Assembly: GCA_049971805.1 (NCBI GenBank)
Contig: JBMFKU010000001.1
Span: 32,001-96,000 of the forward strand
Length of the DNA: 64,000 nucleotides
Reading direction: 5' to 3'
Origin: Caldisphaera sp.
Lineage (GTDB): Archaea > Thermoproteota > Thermoprotei_A > Sulfolobales > Acidilobaceae
In this document: positions 7,278-35,615 of the stretch, one piece after another
Position numbering within the stretch: the first letter of the stretch is position 1
Layout of the letters: every line of letters starts with the position of its first letter
Made by a program: the position numbers and the translations under genes
The notes under the pieces: model-generated
Databases searched by the model: none
Told to the model about the DNA's origin: nothing
The model's input: the letters and a program-made list of their open reading frames with translations, nothing else

Positions 7278-8714
7278 TTGGGGACAAAAATGAGCCCAAA
7301 AGAAGAAATATTAAAAAATGTAAGAAAGAGATTATCTTATTATAGATCTTTAGGAGCAGATCCTCTTTCACTTGCCACCGGATGTGCAGTAAAGGTAGAT
7401 CTATTAAGAGTAGTTTATCCAGCTATGGAAAAAATTAAACCATACCTAACAAACAAAAACATAGAAATTGCTGATAGGGAAGATGCTGATGTATTTTTAG
7501 GGGATCCTGGATCAGTCGAACTTCACAGAAGAATTATGAGATTAGGAGAAAGGAATGAAATGAATTTAAAATTTAGCAATAATATAAGGGCAATAATTTT
7601 AGTTCAGGTATATCAATTAGCAGCTGATGAACCAGAAAAATTCATTAAAAAGATATTGCCAGTATATGAAAGCATATGTAATTGTGCACCATCAATAAAT
7701 ATAGGTAAAGGTCATTCTATTGTAACTCCTTTTAGGGAGGATGAATTTATGCTAATTGATTTGATATCATATGAAAAAGGTGATAAAATAATAGCAGCAA
7801 ATAATGACACTATGCATATAATAGATCCAACTAATAGCCCATCTGATTATAGGCAAGTATCTGGATCCATATCTAATTCATTAAATGATTTATTTGTTAT
7901 AGGGGCATACAAAGATTTGAGAATTTCACCGGTATTAAACGCACCTACAGAAGAACTGAAAGAGAAGTTAATTAAAAACACCAAAAGGTTTGCAAATGAA
8001 ATAGGTGCACAGATGATTGATGTAGAACAGCCAAAAAGGGGAAGACTCTTATTGGGAGCAACTGTATTGGCTAACAGCGATAAGAAACCTCCAATGTTTC
8101 ATAAACATGCAGATAAAGGCATGAGGATTATTGCAACAAGACCATTTGGAGAATTAGCTCCTATAACAACCTTTCTCTCAACAACCGTAGATGAAACAAT
8201 AATAGATGAATTGCAACAAAAAGGAATTGAATTAGATTACTTAGAAAAGATAAAAGAAAATGCAGTAAATATAATATCAGCACCTAATAAAGGAATGGGA
8301 GAAGTTATATCAAAATATCTGCCTGAATTAAATGAAGAATTTAGAAAAGACCAGCATATTGTTGCAACAACAGATGTTACAGGGCCAGGAATTTTTGTTG
8401 TATGGGAAGTATCTAAGCTAACAAACACACATATAAAGTTATATAATTTTCCATTGCTTTTCCCTGAAATATCTGAATTTGCTACAGAAAAATTCTTAAT
8501 GCCGAATGCAACTGCAGGAACAAATGGGGGATTTATAATAGTTTCTCCAGAGGAAATATATGAAGATGTAATCAAAGATCTTAGATACAAAGGATATATG
8601 CCATCAGTTATAGGAGAGATTATAGAAAGGGGTAAACAAGAGGTTGAAGCACCTAAAGAAATAACAAAATACGTACTAGACCAAGAAATATTAAATAAGT
8701 TCAAACTATATTAA
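7278..8714 (+). CDS. SelD-like (AIR synthase superfamily) putative sulfur-metabolism protein
   Basis: GCAVKV, NSLND, TDVTGPG and GTNGG motifs; likely start ATG 7290. Confidence 0.85.
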   Translation: MGTKMSPKEEILKNVRKRLSYYRSLGADPLSLATGCAVKVDLLRVVYPAMEKIKPYLTNKNIEIADREDADVFLGDPGSVELHRRIMRLGERNEMNLKFSNNIRAIILVQVYQLAADEPEKFIKKILPVYESICNCAPSINIGKGHSIVTPFREDEFMLIDLISYEKGDKIIAANNDTMHIIDPTNSPSDYRQVSGSISNSLNDLFVIGAYKDLRISPVLNAPTEELKEKLIKNTKRFANEIGAQMIDVEQPKRGRLLLGATVLANSDKKPPMFHKHADKGMRIIATRPFGELAPITTFLSTTVDETIIDELQQKGIELDYLEKIKENAVNIISAPNKGMGEVISKYLPELNEEFRKDQHIVATTDVTGPGIFVVWEVSKLTNTHIKLYNFPLLFPEISEFATEKFLMPNATAGTNGGFIIVSPEEIYEDVIKDLRYKGYMPSVIGEIIERGKQEVEAPKEITKYVLDQEILNKFKLY

Positions 8715-17588: not shown

Positions 17589-17726
17589 GAACCTCGCCTG
17601 TATTCATATATATATACTGTAAAGTATATATATATTTCTACAAGATATACAAATAGGAAAATTTTTATAGATCTATTAATTAAAACTCTTGTTTAATTTT
17701 TCATCACAAGAAACTTCCTTAAATAA

Positions 17727-18752
17727 CTATTCTATAAGATCATAATTGTGGGAAATACACTCTATATTAAAAATTAACTCAGCATTTTCATGGGCATATT
17801 TTTCAAGGTTTTTTCTTGATATTCCGTGGCTTAATAATGTCAAAAATACATCTTCCATGTATAGCTTAGGATCAGAATTGCTAACCGCAGGATAATCAGA
17901 ACCGTACATAATTTTATCAATAGGGAAATCCTTCATTACTATCGGTATCAATTGGACAGGTAATGCTGATGTATCAACATAAACATTTTGATATTTTTTG
18001 GATAATTCTAATGTTTCATCCATAAACACCCCAGGAGCTATTGCACTATATCCTCCAGCATGCGCTATTATAATTTTTGCGTCTCTATACTTTCTTAAAA
18101 TAGGATCCAATCTAGATGTATCCCCATACTTACAATATTTTGGTAATTCCCATATACCCGGATCACATCCTCCATGTATCGTTACTGGTAATCCTTTTTC
18201 ATTAGCTACCTCAATGGTTGCTTCTACTGATGGATCGTCTAAGTGCTTAAGGAATATAGTTGAAATTATTTTAAACCCTTTAAATCCCTCATTTATAGAC
18301 TTCTCTAATATTGATGATAAAACGTCAGGTTCTAATGATAAGTTGGCTGGAAACAAAACAGTGAAATTAGATAAAGCAGAAATTTCTTGGTGCTTTTTGA
18401 ATTGGCAAAAGCTTTCAGAGATCTGGTGTGCCATTAAAAATAAATTTTCAGGTGTTAGGAAATCCTTAATTTCTCCAGCAAACTTATCAATTAAATACTT
18501 TGTTCTATCGTATTCTTTTAATACATCATCATATTGTATTTTTACTAGAAGATCCCTAAATGGAGGGATTCCCAATATAACTGCTCCTCCTATTCCTGAG
18601 GCAATTAATTTTCTCAAATATTCGTTAGCTTCTTTCGCGCTTTTCATTACTGGACTGTGCACATGAGCATCTATTATACAGGATACTGGTATGTCAGCCT
18701 TCAAGTATACTACCCAGATTCTATTTGTTAAGAAACATTTTAAGCTTAACAT
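17727..18752 (-). CDS. amidohydrolase family 2 (TIM-barrel metallo-hydrolase)
   Basis: IDAHVH, IHGG, AHAG, YVDTS and YGSDYP motifs; true start probably ~15 codons downstream. Confidence 0.82.
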   Translation of the reverse strand: MLSLKCFLTNRIWVVYLKADIPVSCIIDAHVHSPVMKSAKEANEYLRKLIASGIGGAVILGIPPFRDLLVKIQYDDVLKEYDRTKYLIDKFAGEIKDFLTPENLFLMAHQISESFCQFKKHQEISALSNFTVLFPANLSLEPDVLSSILEKSINEGFKGFKIISTIFLKHLDDPSVEATIEVANEKGLPVTIHGGCDPGIWELPKYCKYGDTSRLDPILRKYRDAKIIIAHAGGYSAIAPGVFMDETLELSKKYQNVYVDTSALPVQLIPIVMKDFPIDKIMYGSDYPAVSNSDPKLYMEDVFLTLLSHGISRKNLEKYAHENAELIFNIECISHNYDLIE

Positions 18753-18824
18753 TTAAAAAATATTGATAAGCATGTTACCTATACTCTCTTTAAGTACTTT
18801 GGTTTATAATAAATTAATAGAGCG

Positions 18825-19985
18825 GTGAAGTTAGTGGAAGAAGAAAAAATACCAGGAAAGATGCTAAATAGGAAAATTATGATGAAATTAATGAATGCAA
18901 TACAAGAAAGTAAGCCGCCTTATAATTTAACGAGAATGGCAGAATTAATGGATATGCCTGATTCAACCTTAGAAAGTTATTTTAGATTGTTGAAAGACAA
19001 CAAATTTGCAACTGTTGCACTAGATTTTTCTAGGAAGTTGCTGAATTTAAAATATGTGATAGCAATAATTAAAGGTAAATGGCTGGACTCTTCACCGTTA
19101 AAGGATTATTGGTTAGTAGGAAGATTTCATACTTCAATAGGTACAATACTAACATATTATTTTCCATCTAACGAAAGTGAATCAATTAACTCTTTAAAAG
19201 AAATAACAAATGCAGATGTCTATCAATTTTATGATGTGTATAACTCTAGACCGGATTGGCTTTATTATTATGATGAGGAAAATGATAAATTATATGATAT
19301 AGATAAAATATATAAAATGATTGATAATCATCCTCCTATAAATTATGAAATACCAGATCCCCATAGAAAGCCAGATGCTTTAGATGTTTTGATTTTGGCA
19401 GCATTAGGAGCAAATGCTTTAGATAACTATCGTCTATTAATAGAGGCATTTAAAGGTCCAAGCCCTATAAGGAAGTTTAAGCCATTCTCATCATTTAATT
19501 ATCACTTAAACCACTCAAAATTATACTCAAGAGGAGGAGCTTTTTTACCAAAAGTTGGTTTGAATTCATTTAATTTAAGGCTAAGCGAACCTATGCCATT
19601 TACATCAGGTTATATCCTATTAAGGGGCACAAATAAAAACATACAATACATATTTAAAAGGCTATTAGCGTTTCCCTTTGTTGGCCAGATATTAGTGGGT
19701 GATAATGTAATATATTTTAACTATGTGATTCATGTTAAATATTTTGATACAACAATAGTAAATGAATATAAGCAATATGATTGGGATGAGGTATTGCAAT
19801 TCAATCTTATGGGCCATGATGTAAAAGAAAGGTATCTGTTACCATTTAGAGAATACAATCCTGTATTAAAAGAATGGATACCAAATAGTAATTTAGAAGA
19901 AATTGCAAGAAGAAAACTAAGACTATCAGAGTTCGAAAATTGGTACAATAAACATTATCTCAAAAATATAGAAAATCAAGAATAA
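18825..19985 (+). CDS. crenarchaeal tandem Lrp/AsnC-like regulator (two wHTH+RAM-like units)
   Basis: HTH NLTRMAELMDMPDSTLESYFRLL followed by Lrp-like linker DFSRKLLNL; second unit starts PDALDVLILAAL...FNYHLNH. Confidence 0.6.
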   Translation: MKLVEEEKIPGKMLNRKIMMKLMNAIQESKPPYNLTRMAELMDMPDSTLESYFRLLKDNKFATVALDFSRKLLNLKYVIAIIKGKWLDSSPLKDYWLVGRFHTSIGTILTYYFPSNESESINSLKEITNADVYQFYDVYNSRPDWLYYYDEENDKLYDIDKIYKMIDNHPPINYEIPDPHRKPDALDVLILAALGANALDNYRLLIEAFKGPSPIRKFKPFSSFNYHLNHSKLYSRGGAFLPKVGLNSFNLRLSEPMPFTSGYILLRGTNKNIQYIFKRLLAFPFVGQILVGDNVIYFNYVIHVKYFDTTIVNEYKQYDWDEVLQFNLMGHDVKERYLLPFREYNPVLKEWIPNSNLEEIARRKLRLSEFENWYNKHYLKNIENQE

Positions 19986-20001
19986 AAACTTTTAATAAAA
20001 A

Positions 20002-20169
20002 TCATAGAAATATATCGTCTTCTCCAGTTACTGGATTAACAGCTTGTAGATGAGCATGTGTTGCCGGTTGGCCTAAATGAAGGCTTAATACTAAGCTTAT
20101 TACAGCTAATATAGCAGGTAATACACTTAAGACCTTTATGCCGTACCTCTTAACTCCTTTTATACTCAT
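20002..20169 (-). CDS. 55-aa small protein with signal-peptide-like N-terminus (MSIKGVKRYGIKVLSVLPAILAVISLVLSLHLGQPATHAHLQAVNPVTGEDDIFL)
   Basis: Hand-translated ATG 20169 to TGA 20002; GGTGA RBS 6 nt upstream; basic n-region, ~18-aa hydrophobic h-region, polar/acidic tail; below ORF-track cutoff. Confidence 0.75.
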   Translation of the reverse strand: MSIKGVKRYGIKVLSVLPAILAVISLVLSLHLGQPATHAHLQAVNPVTGEDDIFL

Positions 20170-20294
20170 ACTCTCTCACCACATCCTAGTAATATTTCAG
20201 TTAATCATAAACTATTATCTTTTTTCCCATAGTGTTAAATCAAATTCCCGGAGAAAAGCTTATATAAAACCTTATAATAAATCAATATTTTAAA

Positions 20295-20856
20295 GATTGT
20301 AACATTTTCTGTGTAACTTTTTAATATTTCTAATAACTTCTAGATACTATGAAGAGAACTCCATGGAGAGATACTTGATCTCCAGCGATGTTGCAGAGAT
20401 ATTTGGCATGAGCAGAATCGGGGTTATGAAATGGATTAGGCAAGGAAAAAATTAGAGCTGCAGAAATTAATGTAAGTAGAGAATTCCTTATAGTGAGGTT
20501 GAAAGACTGCTAAACAGATCTGGAAGAGTTAAACAAATAGCAATTTATGCTAGAGTTTCGTCAAGTTCCCAAAATGATGTTTGGAGAGGCAATTAAACTC
20601 TTTGAGGGAGTTGATTAGGAAAAATTTCGGTGAGGTTGCACTAATTGAAATTAAAGACATAGAGGGTATGCTTCATGATATGAGGTAAGCCTCTACGTAA
20701 CTAAATTAAAATAAGGAGTGTGAGGCTTCTCCTTCAGGTCAAGTAAAGATGAGGAGTAGGAGTAACTTTATTCCCACATAGGGAGGAATCAGAGTAGATC
20801 CTATAGGTAACCTCTAGATCTCGGGAACTAATGCCCTTCATGGCGGGGAAGGCTGA
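20295..20856 (+). mobile_element. internally deleted, decayed IS607-family element (tnpA 5' part joined to right end)
   Basis: tnpA remnant 20363-20662 abuts the ~190-bp repeat 20664-20856, which ends in GCCCTTCATGGCGGGGAAGG; left boundary approximate. Confidence 0.8.
20363..20662 (+). pseudogene. tnpA: IS607 TnpA serine recombinase remnant
   Basis: Across frameshifts reads MERYLISSDVAEIFGMSRIGVMKWIRQGK/IRA...IPYSEVERLL...IAIYARVSSSSQ../LERQLNSLRE...IKDI (MerR-like HTH plus YARVSS catalytic motif at 20546). Confidence 0.88.
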
Positions 20857-20874
20857 ATCCTTTTTCATTTTAGT

Positions 20875-20891
20875 AAAAATCTTTTTATATT
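20875..20891 (+). promoter_or_regulatory. BRE/TATA promoter candidate for the downstream structured RNA
   Basis: AAAAATCTTTTTATATT about 25 nt before the start of the GC-rich block at 20911. Confidence 0.55.
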
Positions 20892-20910
20892 CAAATATGC
20901 TTAGTTTTTA

Positions 20911-21158
20911 CTGGCAAAGGATGACCTCTCACACCGATGTTGGCTATGCCCAAAAGAGTGGGTGTGATTGCAGAGATGTGAGCCCCGCGCCGTTGAGCTC
21001 GAAGGAGTCTCATGACCCGCATGCAGTTAAGCTTGGCAGATGGTTGAGGGCTAAGTCCCTATGCTCGATCATGATTGAAGATAAGATGATTGAAATGAAA
21101 GTGTATGGACAAACGGTCGGACTTAGGTCTAACCAATATTTCTTATATGAGAGGCCGT
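20911..21158 (+). ncRNA. unclassified ~250-nt structured RNA candidate
   Basis: Hand count 120/250 GC (48%) in a ~30% GC genome; stems CCTCTCA/TGAGAGG (5'/3' ends), TGGTTGAGGGCTAAGTCC/GGACTTAGGTCTAACCA, CACACC/GGTGTG and GAGC/GCTC; upstream TATA. Confidence 0.6.
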
Positions 21159-21202
21159 AAAAACATTTAAACACATATTATTTTTGTATAAAAATAATAT
21201 AT

Positions 21203-22114
21203 TTGGAGATTAAAATGAAAGAAAGAGTTATTCTAAGGTTAACTAAAAAGAAGATATTTAATGAAACAACAGAGAAAATTAGCCCTCCAAAAGGTACTTT
21301 ATTTAATATAGGATCGTTTTTAATAAAAAGCTATGAATTAAGTTTAGATTATTTATTGATTCAAAAAATTAATTATTCTGATGTCTATGAATATAATGGT
21401 ATTGTTCAATTATCTCCTCAACCATGGAGTTCTTATTGTGAATGGCACAATGGATCCTTAGAAGAGGCTGATGATCCAACAAAAAGGATTTACTGCCCTT
21501 TAGAAGCTGAAGGCTTTTGTAGTAAACATAAAAGAACTGATAGAGCAATATATGATCTATGCCTTTCGTATAGAGGAGAAATTGCTCTACAAGCATGCAA
21601 GGAAATTGATAAAAAAATTAAGGGGGAATACGTGGTATACTTAATAGACTATGGGGGAGAAAAACCAAAAGTCGGAACTACTAGAAAGTTTAGAATTCTT
21701 GAAAGAATAGCGGAGCAACCTCATATAATAGCAACAGAATTGTTTATTACAGACAGCCTACATAAAGCAAGATTGATGGAAATGAACATATCTAAAGATG
21801 GTTTTGCAAACGAATTATGGAGACATAGATGGATATCTACGGAAAACATTTATAGCTCAATAATTAAATTAAATTCTATATTAAATAATATATCAAAAAA
21901 ATATTCTCTAAACACTGAATTCAGTTTCTTTAGGGTAAAACAGCCAATTAAAATAGCACCTAAATTGTTAGATTATAACTACTTTTATAATAAAGAATTT
22001 AAAATAGATAGCTATTGGGGCGGATATAATATAATTTATCTAAACAATCAACCATTTATTTTGCCAGAGAATCAAATGCTGCATAGAGATAGTCTAATTA
22101 TAGAAAAAATCTAG
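21203..22114 (+). CDS. DUF2797-like protein (Cys/His cluster plus GIY-YIG-like YxVYL...KVGT...R..EQ core)
   Basis: CEWH...CP...FCSKH...C...C and YVVYL...KVGTT....RIAEQ; likely start ATG 21215. Confidence 0.65.
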   Translation: MEIKMKERVILRLTKKKIFNETTEKISPPKGTLFNIGSFLIKSYELSLDYLLIQKINYSDVYEYNGIVQLSPQPWSSYCEWHNGSLEEADDPTKRIYCPLEAEGFCSKHKRTDRAIYDLCLSYRGEIALQACKEIDKKIKGEYVVYLIDYGGEKPKVGTTRKFRILERIAEQPHIIATELFITDSLHKARLMEMNISKDGFANELWRHRWISTENIYSSIIKLNSILNNISKKYSLNTEFSFFRVKQPIKIAPKLLDYNYFYNKEFKIDSYWGGYNIIYLNNQPFILPENQMLHRDSLIIEKI

Positions 22115-32756: not shown

Positions 32757-35615
32757 TTATGGTTTTTCCCACCACCAAAACTCTGATTCTAAACCATTAG
32801 TGAACGATGGATTTGATTGCCAAGTCATGCTATTCTGGAACGAATTCATGTATGATCCTAATATCCATGCTTTGCTTGGAACAACAACATACACCATTAT
32901 GTAAAGGTCTATAGCCTGTTGTTGTGTTTCGCGTATTATACTAGTGGCATTTGCCCATCCTTGTTCATCAGCTAAATCAGCTTCATTTATCATATCATTT
33001 AGTTGCTTGAATTGTTGGGATTCTTGCCAAATTAAAGCACCAACATATTTATTGCCAGTTGAATTAAATTGTGATGAGAGTTGCTCTAAATAGGTAACAT
33101 TCCATCCATCGGGTCCTCCATAAACTCCTCCTTCTTGATACATAAATGGTAGCCAATACCATGCTAATGGTATCCCATTCCAATCAAGATAATAAACTGG
33201 CATGGGATTAGCTCCAGGAACCATATAGCTTATTATTGTTGAAAACGGCATGTATAATGGAATTGCAGTTATATATGGATCCATTTCATGTAAGTTCTGT
33301 GCCCACATTTCTGCTGCTGTGAAATCAACAGTATCACCGCTTGATACAATTATTGGGAAGTTAACGCTTATATTATAGAAGCCTGATTCTTCCATTAATT
33401 GTTTAGCATATGTCAAGTTAAATGTTGGGCAATTATTTAATTCTGATGGCGGAACAGGATAATCCATACCTTGCAATAATATACCGCACCATGGTTGACC
33501 TAAATTCATATGATATTTCGCATTTCCTAGTATATCATTTATATATTCTGTATAGTTAAATGCATATGCAAATGCCTCTCTAACTAATGGATTTGCAAAA
33601 TAATAGCTTGGTATATTATAGCTTGGATTTATCTCTTTCAATAATGTTTCGCTTATATTTAAATTAAATGAAAACCACCATTCATTTAATGACGGTTCAC
33701 TATATATTTTTATTTTTCCTTGGCTTTCTAATTGCTGTAATGTTGGTATATATGGTGAAAATGAGCTTTTTGGAAAAGTAACTATGTCTGCTTCACCGCT
33801 TGCAAGCATATTTAATGCTGTTGTTGGATCTTTAACCCAATCAACAATAACAGTATCGTTAGGTCTTGGGAAATAAGTTATATTATTAGGCCAGTATGGA
33901 TTTGGTTTCAATACGACGCTTTGTCCAGGAGTATATGATGCTATGAAATAAGGACCAGTAAATCCTGCATTTGAAGAAGGCCATTGAACTTGAGTATTAT
34001 AGTTTCCAACAATACATGTTTGCTGATATTGATAAAATGATTGAGCTAGTTGAGTATAGTTGCCATCATACAACCCGGTTAGGTTTAATCCATCATTAAC
34101 CTGATTTAACCATTTGGCATCCATTACGTAATCAAAAGTGGTCATCATGTTAAAGAAAAACTCTGGACTTACAGATTGTATTAAGTTGAAAGTAATTGTG
34201 TTTGTCTGGTTATTATATGATACTGAATTGATTATTTCTTTAGCTCCTAATGAATCATTTGGTGATGTGACAATAAATGAAAACATTGTATAATTAGGTA
34301 CAGTAAATGGAGCCAAGTTGGTTCCACTGCCAGAAGGTACGCCACCAGCACATACTAACATTCTTATCATTGTATACCATACATCATAAGCTGTTATAGG
34401 GTCCCCATTTGATGCTTTTAATCCTGGTCTTATCTTAAATATGTAAATCGTGTAATTTGGTGATATAGCTCCATATTTGTACCTATTAGTAACATTGCTC
34501 CAATTTCCAACTGTTGGTATGTATTCTGCAAGCATAGGTATAAATTGTGTTGTGCTTGATTGATAATACCAAACCAAAGAGCCATATATATTGTTTATAA
34601 TTTCATTACTGACTGTATCTGGGAATAGAGATGGGTCAAATGTAAATGGTCCTCCAGGAACAACTTCAGCATCAACTATTACTCCAGGATTAGGTATGCT
34701 GGATTGTATAGAATATAAATTAAATTGCATGTTTTCTGATGAAACTGCTACTGTATGGTAGACTGTGTAATTATAAGTTTTACCAGATGAAATGTTTTCT
34801 GTAACAATTGTTAAGCTTATTGGATATAATCCTGGTGTGTTAAATGAAACTGTTATTGGATTTTTAACAGGTTCTATATAGCTAATGTTTCCGGATCTAG
34901 TTAAGAAAACCTGCTCAGCATAGCCAGTTGAATTTCTTGCAGGTAAAGTGATTTTTGTGCCATTACCAAATGATATTATGTACTCCTTTATTGTTATGTT
35001 ATTTCCAGAAGGAGGTTGGAGGAAGCCCAAAGACAAATTAAATGGCTGATTAATTGCAATTACAGGACCTTTATTAATTGCAATTACAGGAACAGTTATA
35101 TAATTGGATTCATTGAAGCTTATATATGGTGTTACTACAATTTCTATTAGGTTATTAGATGAAGAACCAATCAAGTTTCCTTGACTATATATGTTATAAT
35201 AGACCAAGTATGAGCCAGGATAATTAAATGTTAAATTAAAATATTGATTTGTTACATTAATTATTTTACCTGATCCATCATATACCAAGGCGTAATATCC
35301 CGGTTTAAAGTTAGGTATTGATACCTCTAATGGTTGACCAGCTAATGCTGAATAACTTTCAGGTATTAGGGGTTGCAAAGATTGCAAGGTTGTTGTAGAA
35401 GTAGTTGTAAATGTAGAAGTAGAAGTAGTTGTAAATGTAGAAGTAGAAGTAGTTGTAGATATACTTTGAGTGCTTGTAGTTGTAGAAGTAGAAGTTTGCG
35501 GCTTCTTTGAATTATAATAGACTAATGAAGCACCTGCAATTACAACTATAACAACAACTATTACAGCCAATACAGATTTAGATAAATTTCTATTTCTAAA
35601 AATTATTCTATCCAT
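32757..35615 (-). CDS. ABC-type peptide substrate-binding protein (family 5) with Thr/Ser linker and PKD-like N-terminal domains
   Basis: N-terminal TM, ST-rich linker, TFDP, NGDPITAYDV, TGPY, NPYW and VREAFAYAFN motifs. Confidence 0.88.
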   Translation of the reverse strand: MDRIIFRNRNLSKSVLAVIVVVIVVIAGASLVYYNSKKPQTSTSTTTSTQSISTTTSTSTFTTTSTSTFTTTSTTTLQSLQPLIPESYSALAGQPLEVSIPNFKPGYYALVYDGSGKIINVTNQYFNLTFNYPGSYLVYYNIYSQGNLIGSSSNNLIEIVVTPYISFNESNYITVPVIAINKGPVIAINQPFNLSLGFLQPPSGNNITIKEYIISFGNGTKITLPARNSTGYAEQVFLTRSGNISYIEPVKNPITVSFNTPGLYPISLTIVTENISSGKTYNYTVYHTVAVSSENMQFNLYSIQSSIPNPGVIVDAEVVPGGPFTFDPSLFPDTVSNEIINNIYGSLVWYYQSSTTQFIPMLAEYIPTVGNWSNVTNRYKYGAISPNYTIYIFKIRPGLKASNGDPITAYDVWYTMIRMLVCAGGVPSGSGTNLAPFTVPNYTMFSFIVTSPNDSLGAKEIINSVSYNNQTNTITFNLIQSVSPEFFFNMMTTFDYVMDAKWLNQVNDGLNLTGLYDGNYTQLAQSFYQYQQTCIVGNYNTQVQWPSSNAGFTGPYFIASYTPGQSVVLKPNPYWPNNITYFPRPNDTVIVDWVKDPTTALNMLASGEADIVTFPKSSFSPYIPTLQQLESQGKIKIYSEPSLNEWWFSFNLNISETLLKEINPSYNIPSYYFANPLVREAFAYAFNYTEYINDILGNAKYHMNLGQPWCGILLQGMDYPVPPSELNNCPTFNLTYAKQLMEESGFYNISVNFPIIVSSGDTVDFTAAEMWAQNLHEMDPYITAIPLYMPFSTIISYMVPGANPMPVYYLDWNGIPLAWYWLPFMYQEGGVYGGPDGWNVTYLEQLSSQFNSTGNKYVGALIWQESQQFKQLNDMINEADLADEQGWANATSIIRETQQQAIDLYIMVYVVVPSKAWILGSYMNSFQNSMTWQSNPSFTNGLESEFWWWEKP
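35395..35457. repeat. 24-bp coding tandem repeat (2.6 copies) in the Thr/Ser linker
   Basis: GTAGAAGTAGTTGTAAATGTAGAA at 35395 and 35419, partial at 35443; encodes TTTSTSTF repeats. Confidence 0.85.

Follow-up and report, generated by a model that had tools for sequence, protein, structure and literature searches.

The window analysed in this work is a stretch of 64,000 nucleotides (nt) from Caldisphaera sp. (GenBank assembly GCA_049971805.1, contig JBMFKU010000001.1, positions 32,001 to 96,000 of the forward strand), an archaeon whose 1.52-Mb genome has a G+C content of approximately 30%. It carries two convergent genes, one for a protein of 386 amino acids (aa) with the predicted fold of a tandem Lrp/AsnC regulator, and the other for a protein of 55 aa that combines a basic N-terminus, a hydrophobic helix and a short acidic tail. 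This locus is best read as a single representative of a new type of conserved module that pairs a regulator with a peptide. The finding is not confined to one genus; the module is widespread, unannotated and uses a new type of receptor, with quorum sensing as a hypothesis for its use. That the regulator and the peptide are a functional pair is well supported, and we assign a probability of roughly 55% to the proposal that the two are functionally coupled, with the tail peptide as ligand or co-regulator of the regulator.

A preliminary description of the window, made from its letters alone, had pointed out a 55-aa open reading frame (ORF) with a GGTGA motif in front of it and a stop codon 16 nt away from that of the regulator gene; all of these features are present in the sequence. 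The small gene lies on the minus strand at positions 20002..20169 (stop codon at 20002-20004), convergent with the regulator gene, which occupies positions 18825..19985 of the plus strand (stop codon at 19983-19985). The conserved GGTGA at 18823-18827, together with the fact that the database form of the regulator has 383 aa, suggests that translation starts at the GTG at 18834, 7 nt after this motif, rather than at 18825. In the small protein, residues 1-12 form the basic N-region MSIKGVKRYGIK (20134-20169), residues 13-32 a hydrophobic helix with 18-20 hydrophobic residues (20074-20133), residues 33-39 the sequence G-Q-P-A-T-H-A with small residues at -3/-1 (20053-20073), and residues 40-55 the acidic tail HLQAVNPVTGEDDIFL (20005-20052). 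Its ATG is preceded at a distance of 6 nt by a Shine-Dalgarno-like motif, GGTGA (20176..20180, minus strand), that is conserved in the orthologues; GGTGA or GAGGTGA also precedes the partner ORFs of other genera.

Using tblastn, orthologues of the 55-aa ORF were found at the same site in six of the seven genomes of the genus Caldisphaera, with 62-85% identity; in the seventh genome the contig ends inside the regulator gene, ahead of the site of the small ORF. The differences in length between orthologues are in frame (+1 and +6 codons), the 60 nt upstream of the ORF, including GGTGAG, are nearly invariant across the four closer species, and the pairwise ratio of nonsynonymous to synonymous substitution rates (dN/dS) lies between 0.075 and 0.246 in the 13 of 15 pairs with a computable dS (dS approximately 0.3-2.6). 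The 55-aa ORF is a real gene under purifying selection, and the pattern of charge and hydrophobicity at its N-terminus resembles that of a signal peptide, as had been supposed, or of a signal-anchor. It had also been called unannotated; this applies to the list of ORFs on which the preliminary description was based, but orthologues are present in public sources as hypothetical proteins (for instance, Calag_0813). Within the genus, the order of genes is an acetyl-CoA-synthetase-like gene, an amidohydrolase gene, the regulator, the small ORF, a variable insert and a DUF2797-like gene; because the whole neighbourhood is syntenic, the adjacency of regulator and small ORF inside the genus proves nothing by itself.

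A first profile built within the genus (A1) recovered only the six orthologues in 301 genomes of the order, and a search with it against 5.8 billion proteins gave 11 clusters, all of them from this genus or family and described as "hypothetical". Taken alone, this result made the peptide look genus-specific; the wider family emerged from the flanks of distant regulator homologues. Directly past the stop codon of homologues with 13-25% identity, in other genera and families, there are convergent small ORFs of the same design, for instance those encoding MKLTLYRLTPIALRLLPIILALILLTLGAAEADGPKGPPDFDPF, MKVDGKKAYTLYKIMRYAKYAIPIAVAVIALSASVQPTSGDPKDDPFTF, ...GIIGVADPGFFPGIPKPPESPDPF and ...DTEPYNDPKPPDFDAW, several of which have a GAGGTGA ahead of them. 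Small ORFs with a signal-peptide-like N-terminus beside regulator homologues of other genomes, the absence of which would have spoken against the proposed pair, are thus present in other genera and families, and in three orientations.

The distribution of the regulator family was analyzed with a second profile (A2) in 325 genomes of the GTDB order that includes Caldisphaera, and the family was found in 132 of them. If the families of the order are numbered f1 to f13, it occurs in 31/66 genomes of f1, 47/52 of f3, 21/63 of f10, 8/8 of f11, 7/8 of f8, 8/26 of f5, 4/14 of f7, 3/3 of f12, and 1/1 of both f4 and f6. It was not found in f13 (0/47 genomes), f2 (0/29) and f9 (0/6); source names suggest that f13 is the Sulfolobus-type family. 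The module was found in nine of the 13 families, f13 not being one of them.

To search for the small proteins independently of the regulator, a profile of 15 partner proteins (A3) was run over the 325 genomes, and it matched 33 places at E<=0.01. Twenty-six of these are small stand-alone ORFs, and the other seven are broken or lie inside long frames. A regulator-family gene is found within 1.35 kb of 23 of the 26 small ORFs, and the remaining three are located within ~430 nt of a contig end. A uniform scan of 115 regulator loci was carried out with a profile of 33 partner sequences that included the 55-aa protein of the window (A5), and a partner was detected within 1.5 kb at 53 loci (local E<=0.01), or at 51 if the threshold is set at E<=1e-3. 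Among the 40 loci that had not been used in profile building, 19 have a partner at E<=1e-3. As a control, 150 random 5.5-kb windows of this genome gave no match at E<=1e-3, and 12 matches that all fall in the range E 0.002-0.01. A search of 401 genomes of the phylum, ~341 of which are outside the order, did not find the small family in the latter; the only three matches there are inside long ORFs of 222-623 aa. None of 33 members of the partner family matched Pfam, and the sources call them hypothetical.

The orientation of the 53 pairs (E<=0.01) depends on the clade. Convergent pairs number 20 and co-directional ones 4, while the 29 divergent pairs include 13, mostly from family f10, that have two intervening genes. 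Partner-bearing genes are found in most major clades of a tree of 111 regulators, and the type of tail follows the regulator clade (EDDIFL, PPDFDPF, GDPIDDDPVPF, GDENPDDWSLL, RGDPYNSDSF or EDGEDTPFGF). Tails and regulator clades, for which the preliminary description had proposed a test of covariation, do vary together; given that relatives share tails by descent, this is compatible with co-evolution and does not demonstrate it.

The anatomy of the small protein was analyzed in the 51 partners detected at E<=1e-3, which have a median length of 52 aa. In the flank that precedes the hydrophobic stretch, the net charge is +4 in the median and the residues often follow the amphipathic pattern LIKxLKxAK, and the conserved N-terminal residues of the small protein are M1, S2, I3, G5, R8, Y9, G10 and K12. 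A nearly invariant Pro opens the hydrophobic helix. The median length of the uncharged stretch is 17 residues; it often reaches 17-24 and goes up to 38, with 36-38 in this genus. The helix ends in small residues (AEA|D, AQA|D, AAA|K, SAS|V, TYA|D, GVA|D; T-H-A|H in the protein of the window) and is followed by a Gly/Pro-rich acidic tail with a median charge of -3 and a nearly invariant Asp. Forty-two of the 51 partners end in a hydrophobic or aromatic residue (F 21, L 8, I 6, V 3, W 2, M 1, Y 1). Tails are conserved across genera and even families, frequently as ...GDPIDDDPVPF or ...PPDFDPF. The AlphaFold2 model of the 55-aa protein has a single helix at residues 6-32 and an unstructured tail. 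According to the positive-inside rule, a protein of this kind would keep its N-terminus in the cytoplasm and expose its tail on the outer side. Judged from the sequence, the helix may be either a cleaved signal peptide or a permanent anchor, and each reading has some support; for instance, one clade has a Lys inside the hydrophobic stretch (..PLIVKIVVIGLAAAK..) that leaves a core of 9-11 residues. A class III (prepilin-type) signal was rejected on account of the charged residues after the KG/YG sites and of the other genera that have no such site. Sec61-beta, SecE and ATP-synthase subunit identities were rejected as well, given the patchy distribution of the family and its lack of Pfam matches (0/33).

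A different form of the partner occurs in the genus designated g14 (two species) and in the GC-rich members of genus g6. No long ORF follows the regulator stop codon in these genomes; in its place there is a convergent micro-ORF of 15-18 aa that encodes nothing but the tail and has a GGTG(A) and a start codon of its own. The products are MSPGGAP[RK]PPD[FL]DPF (15 aa), MRGGPRARPGVPFPDPV (17 aa) and (M)RGGPKAKPGVPFPDPAL (18 aa), and between the two g14 species the micro-ORF shows four synonymous and two conservative differences. A possible further leaderless case, of 20 aa, is found in genus g8. The tail-only form thus occurs in at least two lineages, and possibly in four. On the regulator tree, the leaderless lineages branch from within groups that have a leader, which suggests repeated losses of the leader with retention of the tail at its original site. 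The leaderless 15-18-aa versions cannot use Sec, and since these lineages keep only the tail beside the regulator, they point to the tail as the active part, presumably able to act on an intracellular target. This is the strongest hint on the mechanism.

Regarding the 386-aa protein, Pfam and NCBIfam gave nothing above noise (HTH_IclR scored E 0.26), and an exhaustive search of 1.84 billion representative proteins recovered only 10 relatives. Its AlphaFold2 model (predicted local distance difference test, pLDDT, 80.1; predicted TM-score, pTM, 0.83) shows a winged helix-turn-helix (wHTH) followed by an alpha/beta domain, twice, and then a long C-terminal helix. The predicted segments are wHTH-1 (residues ~16-83), a beta/alpha domain (97-140), wHTH-2 (185-242), a ferredoxin-like RAM-type domain (259-336) and the C-terminal helix (358-385). 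When the model was compared with the PDB using Foldseek, the top matches were the NirDL structures 4ch7 (E 3.6e-9) and 4czc (E 1.1e-8), over the full length, with TM-scores of 0.42-0.51 and 10% identity; these were followed by about 30 single Lrp/AsnC regulators, each covering one half of the protein with a probability of 0.85-0.97. A profile of 17 relatives searched against the PDB matched, with its second half, whole archaeal Lrp chains weakly but consistently, including PH0140 and ST1022, and LrpA 1i1g at positions 7-120 with E 0.015. Of 26 members of the family, 7 matched HTH_24, with a best E of 4.6e-6, and none matched the RAM model PF01037 (0/26). An hhalign comparison of the N- and C-terminal halves of the family gave no signal of an internal repeat (probability 0.2), so the tandem nature of the regulator is read from its fold. 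The closest clusters obtained with a protein language model, which provide a lead only, are archaeal HTH_24/AsnC-type proteins of 300-440 aa. Members of the family have 350-440 aa, with two units per chain, and share an additional C-terminal motif, R-Y-x-L-P-F-R-x-Y-x-P...W, plus a helix. A tandem Lrp/AsnC fold is supported by the model, and the protein is a putative DNA-binding protein. The two wHTH units and RAM-like domains that had been assigned to it by eye are therefore backed by AlphaFold2, Foldseek and the weak Lrp profile match, whereas Pfam and NCBIfam do not recognise them and the repeat analysis did not reveal them; the protein is, as had been proposed, not a tetratricopeptide repeat (TPR) regulator, given that no TPR model of Pfam matched it and no TPR structure is among the top Foldseek matches.

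We propose that the first gene encodes a cytoplasmic transcription factor formed by the fusion of two Lrp/AsnC-like units, each with a wHTH and an alpha/beta ligand-type domain, and that the second encodes a pre-peptide of approximately 45-60 aa with a basic amphipathic N-terminus and a Pro-containing hydrophobic helix. This helix would carry the small protein into or across the membrane, with the N-terminus inside and the C-terminus outside. The functional part would be the short acidic Pro/Gly-rich tail, whose last residue is hydrophobic or aromatic and has a free carboxylate; this tail peptide would serve the adjacent factor as its cognate ligand or as a co-regulator. Most lineages would first export the peptide, and then either release it at the small-residue site behind the helix or display it, so that the activity of the regulator would report on the extracellular peptide or on export itself. 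A few lineages would have lost the leader and would make the 15-18-aa tail directly in the cytoplasm. A prediction of the complex from the regulator alignment (A4) and the small-protein alignment (A5) gave run scores of 0.00, 0.63 and 0.01, and was used neither for nor against this proposal.

A further step would be that the module is the first archaeal cell-cell or autocrine signalling system based on a ribosomal peptide, acting extracellularly with re-import; we regard this as possible but doubtful. The pre-peptide would be exported by Sec and cut behind the helix, the acidic tail of 12-22 aa would accumulate outside, and an oligopeptide ATP-binding cassette (ABC) importer would take it up. 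Through its C-terminal hydrophobic residue and free carboxylate, the tail would then bind to the RAM-type interface of the single-chain double Lrp and switch transcription; the leaderless lineages would have made this circuit cell-autonomous. The genome encodes seven Opp/Dpp-type binding proteins (SBP_bac_5), so peptide uptake is possible, which is a prerequisite and nothing else. One of them, a 952-aa ORF at positions 32757-35615 of the window (minus strand), 13 kb from the cassette, has an N-terminal anchor and an SBP_bac_5 domain at 33285-34541. The archaeal peptide quorum-sensing pair envisaged in the preliminary description stands as far as the conserved pairing and the non-TPR fold of the regulator are concerned, whereas the quorum-sensing part is weakened by tails that are conserved across genera and families instead of being diversified, by the conservation of the leader itself, an amphipathic basic helix, and by the existence of leaderless forms. 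It is also weakened by an uncharged stretch that in many cases has the length needed to anchor the protein permanently in the membrane, by a cassette that holds no dedicated transporter or protease, and by an intact peptide gene that stands beside a regulator with a 1-nt frameshift in one genome of the genus. In PMC5413776, archaeal cell-cell signalling is described as resting on molecules similar to acyl-homoserine lactones (AHL) and on diketopiperazines. A literature search that did not extend to supplements retrieved no report of an archaeal regulator/pro-peptide cassette.

Several observations weigh against the tail being a ligand or co-regulator. At 64 of the 115 regulator loci no partner was detectable, which implies that the factor can work alone or that the partners have diverged beyond the profile; a hidden Markov model of the tail alone recovered, at these 64 loci, just the two g14 micro-ORFs and one weak case. 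In addition, related genomes are not independent, and therefore the counts given above overstate the independent cases, which on the tree amount to approximately 8-10 combinations of clade and arrangement. The f10 pair is split by a NUDIX gene and a 119-aa ORF, and its small gene lies directly upstream of the atpD cluster, co-directional with the A-type ATP synthase genes for atpD, DUF61, an H/G-like subunit and subunit I (locus L122, G254:C16 2070-6500; also L118); in this family, inherited synteny may account for part of the linkage. Among the genomes of the genus, a complete one (L046, G005:C1 ~7520-8642) has a 1-nt insertion that frameshifts the regulator near codon 85 and leaves open frames of 111 aa and 318 aa, and the sources list a 287-aa Calag_0812; the adjoining small gene is intact, and the frameshift could represent decay, a split gene or a sequencing error. 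Finally, the same neighbourhood would result if the regulator acted locally and did no more than control the gene of a small envelope protein next to it.

This last explanation, in which the tandem Lrp-like factor controls the transcription of the adjacent gene for a small membrane or secreted protein and the two proteins never touch, is in our opinion rather unlikely. The small protein would in this case have a role in the envelope, for instance as an accessory of a membrane complex, or through a cation- or surface-binding tail. Such an arrangement is consistent with the commonest form of adjacent pairs, the divergent one with 57-156 nt between the starts, which is typical of regulators and their targets, with the small gene of f10 just upstream of atpD-DUF61-atpI, and with the small gene that remains intact where the regulator is frameshifted. 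The upstream region of the small gene could also be read in this way. A TATA-like block, TTATATAA..CTCCG, with invariant columns in an alignment of four genomes, is located ~80-100 nt 5' of the ATG (20249..20268, minus strand) and is a candidate promoter. Between this block and the Shine-Dalgarno-like motif, the same alignment revealed a conserved 17-nt box, ACTGAAATATTACTAGG (20185..20201, minus strand), which in the relatives reads ACTAGAATATTACTAGG and is partly palindromic (CTAG-N7-CTAG); it has one match in the window against 0.17 expected, and may be an operator. Convergent pairs, in contrast, with 3-60 nt between the stops or an overlap of up to 45 nt, have no common promoter region. 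For the pair of the window, the spacer of 16 nt between the two stops (19986..20001) contains only A and T except for one C, and the oligo-T runs present in it or beside it on both strands are plausible archaeal terminators. The leaderless variants, moreover, have lost every membrane-targeting feature and yet stay beside the regulator, which is hard to square with a role in the envelope.

An improbable alternative is that the small protein is an uncleaved signal-anchor, with the N-terminus in and the C-terminus out, whose cytoplasmic basic helix holds the regulator at the membrane or modulates it there, while the acidic external tail senses a cue from outside such as pH, cations or the cell surface. 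An uncharged stretch that frequently reaches 17-24 residues, and 36-38 in this genus, would suit an anchor, as would the continuous helix predicted for residues 6-32; the conserved LIKxLKxAK pattern and the conserved residues from M1 to K12 listed above are unusual for a mere n-region of a signal peptide. It is the tail, however, and not the N-terminal helix that the leaderless variants keep, and the stretch broken by Lys in one clade, with its core of 9-11 residues, looks more like a signal peptide. That the two genes are chance neighbours, or that the 386-aa protein is an enzyme similar to the siroheme decarboxylases NirDL/AhbAB instead of a regulator, we consider very improbable, because although NirDL is the best structural match and the adjacency inside the genus is ordinary conserved synteny, the adjacency recurs over families and orientations against 0/150 controls, the identity with NirDL is 10%, PF17805 matched neither the regulator nor 25 relatives, no haem-pathway genes lie nearby, and a genuine NirDL/AhbAB-type protein with two PF17805 domains (a 329-aa frame) is encoded separately, on contig C10 of this genome (G000:C10:33762-34514).

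Some additional observations were made on the surroundings of the module. Upstream of the small gene, the region at 20330-21170 of the window is gene-free, richer in G+C (up to 48%) and a mosaic of repeated elements, with no Rfam match. Its first part contains MerR-type helix-turn-helix fragments (HTH_17, E 0.0016) and the motif ..IAIYARVSSSSQ.., which we take to be serine-recombinase-like, and resembles a decayed orfA of the IS607 type. The segment 20642-20851 has ~25 copies in the genome with 73-83% identity and is similar to a miniature inverted-repeat transposable element (MITE), and copies of 20851-21116 with 87-92% identity are found at several contig ends as well as on contigs C4, C5 and C6. 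Around the locus, scans for tRNA genes and with Rfam, the latter at both gathering and E-value thresholds, gave only a chance-level U6 match (E 0.94), and a scan for sigma-70 promoters and intrinsic terminators, which is not meaningful for an archaeon, gave background counts. For positions 17700-21300, a look-up of public RNA runs listed none. On the other side of the regulator, the 222-aa ORF at 17998-18666 (plus strand) is an antisense shadow of the amidohydrolase gene at 17727-18752 (minus strand), and its conservation of 72-77% in relatives merely reflects that gene. In the genus g17 (loci L056-L061), a regulator paralogue without a partner is followed by a co-directional gene for a 191-aa protein with an N-terminal membrane anchor, and the gene that precedes this set reads by eye as an OppD/DppD-type ABC ATPase; other paralogues of the regulator may have other membrane or secreted partners.

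If the tail peptide is indeed the ligand or co-regulator of the adjacent factor, a gene-encoded peptide as effector of an Lrp-type protein would be a new regulatory principle even without quorum sensing, and the receptor would belong to a class unrelated to the TPR receptors of bacteria. The tail is a concrete candidate ligand, which can be synthesised, for a family of uncharacterised archaeal transcription factors present in 132/325 genomes of the order. The module also brings to light a conserved family of small proteins of 45-60 aa, and micro-ORFs of 15-18 aa, that are often missed by gene callers or called hypothetical, and its leader-bearing and leaderless variants constitute a natural experiment that could separate extracellular from intracellular action.

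Among the known systems, the nearest in genetic logic are the RRNPP/RRNPPA cassettes, which are described for Bacillota and their mobile elements; according to PMC10075063, they consist of two adjacent genes that encode an intracellular receptor/regulator and a small pro-peptide. Like Rap-Phr, NprR-NprX, PlcR-PapR, PrgX and AimR-AimP, the archaeal module has adjacent genes, for a putative receptor and a putative pro-peptide, in variable orientation, and the N-terminal export signal and active C-terminal end of the RRNPP pro-peptides would have counterparts in the features predicted here. In contrast, the RRNPP receptor is a TPR protein whereas that of the module has a tandem Lrp/AsnC fold, RRNPP tails diversify rapidly into pherotypes whereas the archaeal tails are conserved across genera, and the archaeal module has a conserved N-terminal leader and leaderless versions. 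Since the defining TPR receptor is absent, the module is not a member of RRNPP.

Small membrane proteins that modulate regulators are also known from bacteria, as in the case of MgrB-PhoQ. The likeness lies in the possible modulation of a signalling protein by a single-span protein of ~50 aa; the sequences are unrelated, the target in the archaeal module would be a cytoplasmic DNA-binding protein, and the leaderless variants argue for the tail, and not the membrane span, as the essential part. With respect to the fold of the regulator, NirDL/AhbA-AhbB (4ch7, 4czc, 4czd) give the best full-length match, and no other protein among the matches has a solved Lrp/AsnC fold in tandem or as a hetero-pair; they differ from the regulator in their PF17805 domains and haem-pathway context. 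Each half of the model superposes on Lrp/AsnC regulators (LrpA 1i1g, FL11/PH1519 2cyy, ST1022 2efo and E. coli AsnC 2cg4) as a wHTH plus an alpha/beta RAM-type domain, although the Pfam RAM model PF01037 fails on the family. Lrp/AsnC proteins are single units of ~150 aa that assemble as dimers or octamers, whereas in the regulator described here two units are fused in a chain of 350-440 aa. RAM domains bind small ligands at the interfaces between subunits, and the ligand proposed for the archaeal regulator is a gene-encoded peptide instead of a free amino acid.

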